Source of the DNA: Escherichia phage EM1
Reading direction: 5' to 3' (one strand)
Length of the DNA: 44,223 nucleotides
Sequence record: PQ571293
In this document: positions 40,719 to 40,842 of the stretch, piece by piece
Position numbering within the stretch: the first letter of the stretch is position 1
Layout: every line of letters begins with the position of its first letter
Made by a program: the position numbers and the translations under genes
Notes under the pieces: model-generated
Databases searched by the model: none
Told to the model about the DNA's origin: nothing
What the model saw: the letters and a program-made list of their open reading frames with translations, nothing else

Positions 40719-40749
40719 TTGTTTCTCTCCTCTCGTTTGGTATGGGCTA

Positions 40750-40778
40750 ACTATAATAGCGAACTATTCACATGTCAA
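40750..40778 (-). promoter_or_regulatory. sigma70-like promoter on minus strand, TTGACA -35, 17 nt spacer, TATAGT -10
   Basis: minus-strand reading TTGACATGTGAATAGTTCGCTATTATAGT; divergent from the HTH gene. Confidence 0.55.
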
Positions 40779-40842
40779 TGGGCTTTTCTAAAATAATTAA
40801 TATGGTACTATTCACATATCAACTAACTAAGGAGTAATTGAT

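Follow-up and report, generated by a model that had tools for sequence, protein, structure and literature searches.

A probable Cro-like repressor with a dispersed operator regulon in the virulent Escherichia phage EM1

The sequence record of Escherichia phage EM1 (PQ571293; its 44,223 nucleotides are the window analysed here) contains a divergent control region at 40719-40842, which separates a minus-strand open reading frame (ORF, 40236-40718) from a plus-strand gene (40843-41058) coding for a 71-residue helix-turn-helix (HTH) protein. Analysis of this region and of its relatives suggested that the HTH protein is probably a Cro-like repressor that acts without a CI partner on a regulon of operators dispersed over a virulent phage genome. 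The evidence consists of a family of palindromic sites, their positions on promoters, their conservation, the family and predicted fold of the protein, and an association between HTH clade and operator type. A sequence-only reading made earlier had described the divergent layout, both flanking ORFs and the HTH gene as the only plus-strand gene of the replication side, all of which was borne out, no other plus-strand ORF free of overlap lying in the interval of about 31.2-43.8 kb; its interpretation as a whole, a local autoregulated switch built on two direct 16-mers, is partly supported. The region 40100-41300 matched 443 phage records, the top matches being Escherichia phages assigned to Kagunavirus (Guernseyvirinae), whose genomes measure 41-45 kb, among them vB_VIPECOTH07 (44,205 bp, 94% identity), one of the best. 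Therefore, the window is essentially the whole genome of a virulent Kagunavirus siphovirus infecting E. coli.

The recurrent unit was identified as a 14-bp palindrome, AATAG-N4-CTATT, with the 16-bp form TAATAG-N4-CTATTM. Six perfect copies were found in the window (0.03 expected), starting at 1310, 12360, 21896, 33590, 38130 and 40755. A one-mismatch copy, AATATggtaCTATT, starts at 40799 on the promoter of the HTH gene, and an eighth copy is divided between the two ends of the window. This palindrome was the most enriched of all 5+N+5 palindromes, both in the window and in the Jerseyvirus Ent3, and a PHIRE-like scan returned it as the top repeat family besides terminators. Furthermore, the 8-mer core ACTATTCA occurred eight times against about one expected, and seven of the eight aligned sites share AATAG-N4-CTATT. 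At the divided copy, 19 relatives have TTGCACACCCCAACATAATAGGATACTATTCAC where the window reads ...CATAA|AGGATACTATT..., lacking one T, and the extra T restores AATAGgataCTATT. Because these relatives carry one more T (…CATAATAGGATACTATT…) at this join (44206-44223/1-16), within the promoter/operator, the record seems to have been linearised inside the element, with the loss of one base.

The motif and the 'repressor' annotation of the gene were already public. Seven PHIRE 'phage promoters' with the consensus tgAATAGTa-ccTATTat-T were reported for phage fBC-Eco01 and credited to a 'phage-encoded RNA polymerase' (PMC9825357), and seven such promoters were also reported for the Kagunavirus vB_EcoS-Golestan; no RNA polymerase gene is present in these genomes. 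The reading of the motif as a palindromic operator, its link to the HTH protein and the regulon map appear to be new within the literature searched.

The two direct 16-mers are real, with a correction to one of them. The first, ACTATTCACATGTCAA, lies at 40763-40778 exactly as described, and the second, ACTATTCACATATCAA, lies at 40807-40822, the earlier placement at 40806-40821 being one base leftward. With two mismatches or fewer, the 16-mer occurred four times in the window (0.02 expected), and the local repeat extends to 25 nt (40754-40778 vs. 40798-40822, 84% identity, 44 bp apart), with an A+T-rich stretch at 40780-40806 between the copies. The 3' part of the 16-mer (CACATRTCAA) was not kept as a repeat in relatives, and copy 1 reads ACTATTCATGATGTCAA or similar in many Kagunavirus loci. 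The direct 16-mer could not be upheld as the functional element, the real unit being the palindrome, which lies mostly to its left; the second 16-mer belongs to the one-mismatch palindrome at 40799. Likewise, the proposed local two-site switch gave way to a wider arrangement, as the same palindrome is present on at least six more promoters across the genome.

All eight sites overlap promoter-like elements, each with a gene start 20-90 nt ahead of it, and they occupy two or more registers with respect to the -35 and -10 hexamers. The palindrome centre lies at about -13 or about -19.5 relative to sigma-70-type hexamers, and sites occur on both strands. In class A (TTGCAC/G-N17-TACTAT), the right half-site is itself the -10 hexamer; this class comprises the sites at 1309 (+), 12359 (-), 21895 (-) and the split site (+). 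In class B (TTGACA/G-N17-TATAGT), the palindrome fills the spacer, centred at about -19.5; this class comprises the site O1 of the control region and the sites at 38129 and 33589, all leftward. The second site of the control region, O2, has the class A form, combined in Kagunavirus with a poor -35 and a TGn extended -10, and the orthologous HTH promoter of Jerseyvirus shows the full TTGCRY-N17-TACTAT. The promoters and putative operators are as follows.

40750-40778, minus strand: leftward sigma-70 promoter, -35 TTGACA (40778->40773), 17-nt spacer, -10 TATAGT (40755->40750), 11/12 consensus positions
40754-40769, no strand: putative operator O1, TAATAGcgaaCTATTC, core 40755-40768, in the spacer of the leftward promoter, centre about -19.5; copy 1 of the 16-mer overlaps its right half
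40798-40813, no strand: putative operator O2, TAATATggtaCTATTC, core 40799-40812 with the mismatch AATAT, on the -10 of the HTH promoter; copy 2 of the 16-mer overlaps its right half
40803-40811, plus strand: probable extended -10 of the HTH promoter, TGgTACTAT; the -35 position (40783-40788, CTTTTC) is poor
1294-1324, plus strand: class A promoter, TTGCAC (1294-99)-N17-TACTAT (1317-22), with putative operator GAATAGgctaCTATTC (1309-1324), for the small ORF 1352-1561
12359-12389, minus strand: class A promoter, TTGCAG (12389->12384)-N17-TACTAT (12366->12361), with putative operator (12359-12374), for the DNA methyltransferase gene 11636-12343
21895-21925, minus strand: class A promoter, TTGCAC (21925->21920)-N17-TACTAT (21902->21897), with putative operator (21895-21910), for the cluster of Imm, exonuclease, HNH and deoxynucleoside monophosphate (dNMP) kinase genes (21881->19467)
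33585-33613, minus strand: class B promoter, TTGACG-N17-TATAGT, with putative operator TAATAGcaaaCTATTA (33589-33604) in the spacer, for the helicase cluster
38125-38153, minus strand: class B promoter, TTGACA-N17-TATAGT, 11/12 consensus positions, with putative operator (38129-38144) in the spacer, for the cluster of the Gp2.5-like single-stranded DNA-binding protein (SSB) and DNA polymerase
44206-44223, plus strand: 5' part of the split class A promoter/operator, TTGCAC at 44206-11, running on into 1-16
1-16, plus strand: 3' part of the split promoter/operator, AGGATACTATTCACTT, -10 TACTAT at 5-10, for ORF 45-227 and the next genes

The leftward promoter was kept in all Kaguna-type loci examined, with a spacer of 17 or 18 nt. 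The placement of the two 16-mers on promoter elements was accurate: copy 1 spans the TTGACA (40778->40773) and extends 10 nt into the 17-nt spacer of the leftward promoter, and copy 2 overlaps TACTAT (40806-40811), preceded by TG at 40803-40804, which is the likeliest -10 of the HTH promoter. An alternative reading of that promoter is TTCACA (40767-72)-N16-TAAAAT (40789-94). The eight units behind the sites are all non-structural (small early ORFs, the DNA methyltransferase gene, the HTH gene and gene clusters), and the clusters bearing these sites code for Imm, exonuclease, HNH protein and dNMP kinase; for helicase; for SSB and DNA polymerase; and for the phrog_3127 and NinX-like proteins.

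The conservation of the sites was assessed in 52 loci aligned by position upstream of the HTH start, irrespective of motif content, 37 of them Kaguna-type. The half-sites of O1 were invariant in 37/37 Kaguna-type loci, in which the central N4 took six forms and the stretch from the palindrome to the -35 was variable, with an insertion or deletion. Over six orthologous site groups, the minor-allele fraction was 0.005 in the half-sites, 0.12 in the centre and 0.14 in the flanks, values partly biased by the way in which the sites had been ascertained. In Jerseyvirus, the equivalents of O1 and O2, AATCGtactCTATT and ATTACtgtaCTATT, stand at the same positions and are mutually dissimilar beyond the half-sites; moreover, perfect TAATAG-N4-CTATTA sites were found genome-wide in Jerseyvirus on the orthologous promoters.

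The XRE-family assignment of the HTH protein was confirmed by the profile HTH_3 (PF01381), which matched residues 11-65 with 48.2 bits (Pfam gathering cut-off 23) and an E value of 1.1e-12. In a phmmer comparison, 434 Cro (71 residues) was matched over residues 6-68 (E 7e-6), and the N-terminal domain of the 434 repressor was also matched. A single-sequence AlphaFold model (mean predicted local distance difference test score, pLDDT, 82) contains five helices, at residues 5-17, 21-28, 32-39, 48-57 and 62-66, the third of which reads SQGAINQL. The top Protein Data Bank match of this model was 434 Cro (2cro; 40% identity, template-modelling score 0.71-0.77). By sequence and predicted fold, the protein is closest to phage 434 Cro, and the earlier suggestion of a Cro-like protein agrees with its best solved relatives, 434 Cro and the 434 repressor N-terminal domain. 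The predicted fold is also similar to that of restriction-modification controller (C) proteins. The gene and the elements belonging to it are given below; as the terminator-like hairpin closes the HTH gene, the gene is a monocistronic unit.

40829-40834, plus strand: ribosome-binding site AAGGAG of the HTH gene
40843-41058, plus strand: HTH gene, 71-residue XRE/HTH_3 protein with a 434-Cro-like five-helix predicted fold, the candidate operator-binding regulator
41037-41075, plus strand: intrinsic-terminator-like hairpin and T-run, overlapping the end of the HTH gene, before the convergent helicase-primase gene

The association between protein and site was further assessed in distant homologues, whose loci were scanned for AWTAG-N4-CTAWT over up to about 20 kb each. 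Homologues sharing the helix-3 start S/T-Q-G are CI-type repressors of temperate phages with 150-230 residues (loci L056, L057, L060/61 and L062), together with a short single-domain homologue of 72 residues (L064). Every perfect site in the S/T-Q-G loci falls in one of two places, which resemble the OR and OL positions of lambdoid phages. The OR-like place, 30-92 bp upstream of the repressor gene, holds one or two perfect sites (two to four with one-mismatch copies), and in L056 these are flanked by the CI gene and a divergent Cro-like gene. The OL-like place, just downstream of the repressor gene, holds a pair of sites 25 bp apart (L056, L060, L061 and L062); in L056, this pair covers the -35 and -10 of a PL-like TTGACA-N17-TAATAT, with the right half-site doubling as the -10. 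The clustered sites of L056, L060 and L062 are spaced by 24-25 bp. At loci with other recognition helices (phiP27 and Stx1 CI, Hafnia phage Meifeng and 18 bacterial XRE loci), no AWTAG-N4-CTAWT site was detected. The control helices read TRVAISK in phiP27 and Stx1 CI and TQQSYQQ, which is 434-like, in Meifeng; the latter bears ACAG-N6-CTGT sites instead. Since the S/T-Q-G loci carry the sites and the controls with other helices lack them, the operator type tracks this HTH clade, and this comparative pairing of helix and operator, drawn from sequence, is what we regard as the strongest evidence for the XRE protein as the binder.

L056 (9674-10800), L060, L061 and L062 are contigs of uncultivated temperate phages with lambdoid-style immunity regions, whose CI is homologous to the Kagunavirus HTH protein. 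No prophage homologue of the same specificity was found in E. coli or Salmonella in a contig scan of genomes of species representatives. One Bacteroidota assembly (Taishania pollutisoli scaffold NZ_JACVEL010000022.1, L068) carries a Jerseyvirus-identical HTH protein with a TAATAG-type palindrome, and is probably contaminated with phage DNA.

The operators of phage 434 are 14 bp long with a 5+4+5 geometry (ACAAG...), in which the outer positions are conserved and the centre is uncontacted. By analogy, a dimer of the 71-residue protein would sit on each palindrome of EM1 with one half-site per monomer, the half-sites being one helical turn (10 bp) apart. From these arrangements we infer physical binding, its dimeric mode, repression rather than activation, and the timing. 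After infection, host RNA polymerase would fire all eight promoters. As the regulator accumulated, the early and DNA-metabolism regulon would be turned down through occlusion of RNA polymerase, which the bound protein would exclude because each palindrome covers part of a host sigma-70 promoter core. The weaker, one-mismatch O2 would finally let the regulator limit its own synthesis. The alternative offered in the sequence-only reading, that in a phage without an integrase the region may time early to middle transcription, pointed in the right direction.

Several observations weigh against a Cro-like repressor of this kind. The palindrome is shared by Kagunavirus and Jerseyvirus, whereas their recognition helices differ (SQGAINQL vs. 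SQSLITHL; proteins 48-49% identical). The palindrome family of Cornellvirus and SE1 (about 40% identity), ATTAs-N4-sTAAT, is weak as well as heterogeneous, and the orthologous leftward promoter carries a site without palindromic symmetry. Regarding class A, the automated best sigma-70 reading gave competing -10 assignments, TACTAT or a TATAAT-like hexamer 9 nt upstream; TACTAT was favoured because the invariant TTGCAC stands exactly 17 nt away, and the palindrome covers the -10/+1 region under both assignments. In K1B4, the subject of the only RNA sequencing study of a Kagunavirus, the XRE orthologue (gene 004) was classed as 'middle', and imm and DNA polymerase, which lie behind promoters bearing the putative operators, as 'late', unlike an early shut-off, while the HTH_17 orthologue was one of only four 'early' genes (PMC12645636). 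Sampling in that study ran from 5 to 120 min with a latent period of 30 min, so that rounds of infection were mixed and the series is too coarse, and probably too asynchronous, to decide on a shut-off.

Two details of the distant genera lie beside this comparison. The HTH gene is co-oriented with the helicase-primase gene in Cornellvirus SP-031 (L003, 11098-13749) and in SE1 (L004, 4112-7002), that arm being inverted relative to Kagunavirus and Jerseyvirus, and their ATTAs-N4-sTAAT promoter palindromes come with a -10 of TAATAT.

The published PHIRE reading can be put in a form that dispenses with a dedicated regulator: a paralogous family of sigma-70 promoters, whose palindromic look arises from -10-like hexamers on both strands. 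Such hexamers are present, as the class A right half-site is TACTAT and the class B left flank is TATAGT on the opposite strand, and seven PHIRE 'promoters' have been published for each of fBC-Eco01 and Golestan. However, the AATAG left half-site has no promoter role in class A, and the palindrome lies wholly in the spacer in class B. In addition, all ten half-site positions are invariant while centre and flanks drift, the same palindrome type occurs at OR- and OL-like positions beside homologous CI genes in unrelated temperate phages, and the phage encodes no RNA polymerase for which a 'phage-specific promoter' could serve. We therefore regard this explanation as unlikely. The version that invokes promoters of a phage RNA polymerase was rejected: no RNA polymerase gene is encoded in the window, whose largest ORFs have other functions (an 880-residue tail protein of phrog_469, the tape measure protein, the helicase-primase and the DNA polymerase), and the motif is at no fixed distance or orientation (about -13 and about -19.5, both strands). 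Palindromes in different registers are thus unlike a fixed RNA-polymerase recognition element. It is quite unlikely that the palindromes are operators of another binder, either the early HTH_17/excisionase-like protein (43604-43807) or a host factor. Such a binder would fit the 'early' class of the HTH_17 orthologue and the 'middle' class of the XRE orthologue in K1B4, as well as an XRE helix that differs between Kagunavirus and Jerseyvirus over the same palindrome. It is opposed by the tracking of operator type with XRE clade, a comparison in which the temperate CI loci were not checked for an HTH_17 gene, and by the 14-bp 5+4+5 geometry, which is that of 434 Cro and 434 repressor. No match to the E. 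coli CRP, IHF or ArgR consensuses was recognised in a comparison by eye, and the individual candidates (CRP through a TGTGA half-site in the spacer, IHF and the ARG box) were rejected on misfits of spacing or of the second half-site in the same comparison.

The two readings that stay closest to 40719-40842 fared worse. A local autoregulatory switch of the lambda or C-protein type with the direct 16-mers as operators, the primary proposal of the sequence-only reading, could draw on two sites 44 bp apart (about 4.2 helical turns), one per divergent promoter, and on a predicted fold that resembles C proteins, but six more copies are found at other places in the genome, the 16-mer is not kept as a unit, and a CI-type partner gene, a tripartite operator and adjacent restriction-modification genes are all lacking; we consider it very improbable. 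The two specific models were rejected in their own right. For the lambdoid CI/Cro bistable switch, the divergent gene is not of CI type and two sites 44 bp apart replace three about 24 bp apart; lacking CI, a tripartite operator and a lysogeny module, the region is therefore not such a switch. For the C-protein switch, the likeness is one of fold only, the neighbours are a helicase-primase gene and an unknown gene without restriction-modification genes, and the two sites are 44 bp apart. An origin function, with the repeats as iterons or auxiliary replication sites beside the helicase-primase gene, is barely credible: the copies do flank the A+T-rich stretch in a region of replication genes, but only two copies are present at this locus, identical elements precede the methyltransferase gene, imm and small early genes well outside the replication module, and each copy is precisely registered on a promoter. 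This reading was rejected because the copies are dispersed and promoter-registered.

The Cro-like repressor proposed here was then compared with known systems, first with 434 Cro and the N-terminal domain of 434 repressor. The EM1 protein has the 71 residues of 434 Cro and a single HTH_3 domain, and these two 434 proteins are its best sequence and fold matches; the putative operator is likewise 14 bp long, with 5-bp half-sites and a variable 4-bp centre over core promoter elements, and the HTH gene likewise faces a divergent promoter. In contrast, the half-site in EM1 is AATAG and not ACAA(G), helix 3 starts with SQG and not QQS, the CI partner, the OR1-3 and OL1-3 triplets and the lysogeny module of 434 are lacking, and the two operator clusters are replaced by eight single sites scattered across a virulent genome of 44 kb. 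The proposed logic is also that of lambda Cro at PL and PR, a small early-expressed repressor that lowers early and replication transcription and its own later in the lytic cycle, although lambda Cro has a winged, beta-containing fold, is confined to two loci and forms one half of a bistable switch. A single phage regulator with many dispersed operators over several transcription units is also known from temperate phages (P1 C1, the 'stoperators' of mycobacteriophage L5 gp71 and the phiC31 CIR sites), and eight sites on eight promoter-like elements correspond to this pattern. Those regulators maintain lysogeny, whereas the phage studied here is virulent and without lysogeny genes, and their sites are asymmetric (P1 and L5) and often inside transcription units, whereas those of EM1 are palindromic and on promoters. 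C proteins (C.AhdI, C.BclI and C.Esp1396I) share the small XRE fold and are timing regulators that bind palindromes at their own promoter, but they act through paired C-boxes directly upstream of the C gene, with activation followed by repression. The PHIRE promoters of fBC-Eco01 and vB_EcoS-Golestan are the same element as described here, and the palindromic operator and the XRE link were not drawn there. Overall, the system is a familiar type of switch in an unusual genome-wide layout and not a new principle of gene control.

The PHIRE 'phage RNA-polymerase promoters' can accordingly be reread as host sigma-70 promoters with a repressor operator, and a widely conserved gene annotated as 'hypothetical' or 'repressor' gains a concrete target set. 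If confirmed, the regulon would be the first regulatory map for the Guernseyvirinae, a group often used against E. coli and Salmonella in therapy and biocontrol and also proposed as a small chassis for synthetic biology. A compact repressor/operator/promoter toolkit would then be at hand as well. It would also mean that a virulent lineage has kept only the Cro half of a lambdoid switch, with its operators spread genome-wide.

A broader possibility is that the 71-residue protein alone times the entire lytic programme of Kagunavirus and Jerseyvirus as a master regulator, repressing the eight early and DNA-metabolism promoters through strong palindromes and switching late transcription on. The latter would act through degenerate palindromes on the -35 of rightward promoters (4263-4278 and 12451-12464) that head towards structural genes, in a phage without a sigma factor, an RNA polymerase or a recognisable antiterminator. 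We rate this extension as improbable. If it were true, cells would be protected against these virulent phages by a resident prophage whose specificity matches, or by the protein itself provided in trans, because the operator type is common to CI repressors of temperate phages.

The two degenerate palindromes were observed in the following settings. At 4263-4297, GACTAGttgaCTATTA lies over the -35 of TTGACT-N17-TATATT, downstream of a terminator, and its orthologue in the Jerseyvirus Ent3 is TAATAGttgaCTAGTA (L002 40955); this is a possible third operator register, on a promoter heading to the terminase genes. The 365-nt intergenic region 12344-12708 contains a rightward TTGACT-N17-TAAGCT (12456-12484) with AATAGttgaCTTTT (12451-12464) over it, and a strong terminator (12665-12684) directly ahead of the structural gene at 12709, a layout that hints at attenuation or antitermination of late genes.

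With respect to the remaining genome context, neither an integrase nor lysogeny genes are reported in the published Kagunavirus genomes (PMC9825357, PMC7203180). The full annotation of the Jerseyvirus Ent3 and that of the fBC-Eco01 region contain no integrase, the ORFs of the window having been only partly profiled, and no CI-type gene is present in annotated relatives. The CI partner and the tripartite operator of a lambda-type bistable switch are both lacking. The gene facing the HTH gene is as follows.

40236-40718, minus strand: divergent gene, first of the leftward operon behind the promoter bearing O1, coding for an acidic 160-residue protein of phrog_3127

No Pfam domain and no HTH was found in its product, and the function of phrog_3127 is unknown. 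An Rfam scan of the whole window gave zero matches. An inverted repeat at 40815-40845 in the 5' untranslated region of the HTH gene pairs with the start codon (RNA fold -7.3 kcal/mol, z -2.0). This hairpin was dropped as part of the mechanism, since a T-to-C change weakens it in most relatives without compensatory changes.

A second DNA-binding gene, of the HTH_17 type, lies at 43604-43807. The promoter-like TTGATT-N17-TATACT (43835->43807, minus strand) of the HTH_17/helicase-primase operon carries no copy of the palindrome, and its -10 runs into the TTG given as the start of ORF 43604-43807; translation therefore probably begins further downstream, at the start that relatives use (60 residues). 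Finally, at 43846-44140, a half-site is combined with a consensus -35 facing rightward (CTATTGACA, TTGACA at 43851-43856), followed by about 250 nt without a convincing ORF and then by a GC-rich hairpin (about 44113-44135). The fBC-Eco01 annotation places a 'host promoter' and a terminator at the matching position, and the segment may be a small non-coding transcript.

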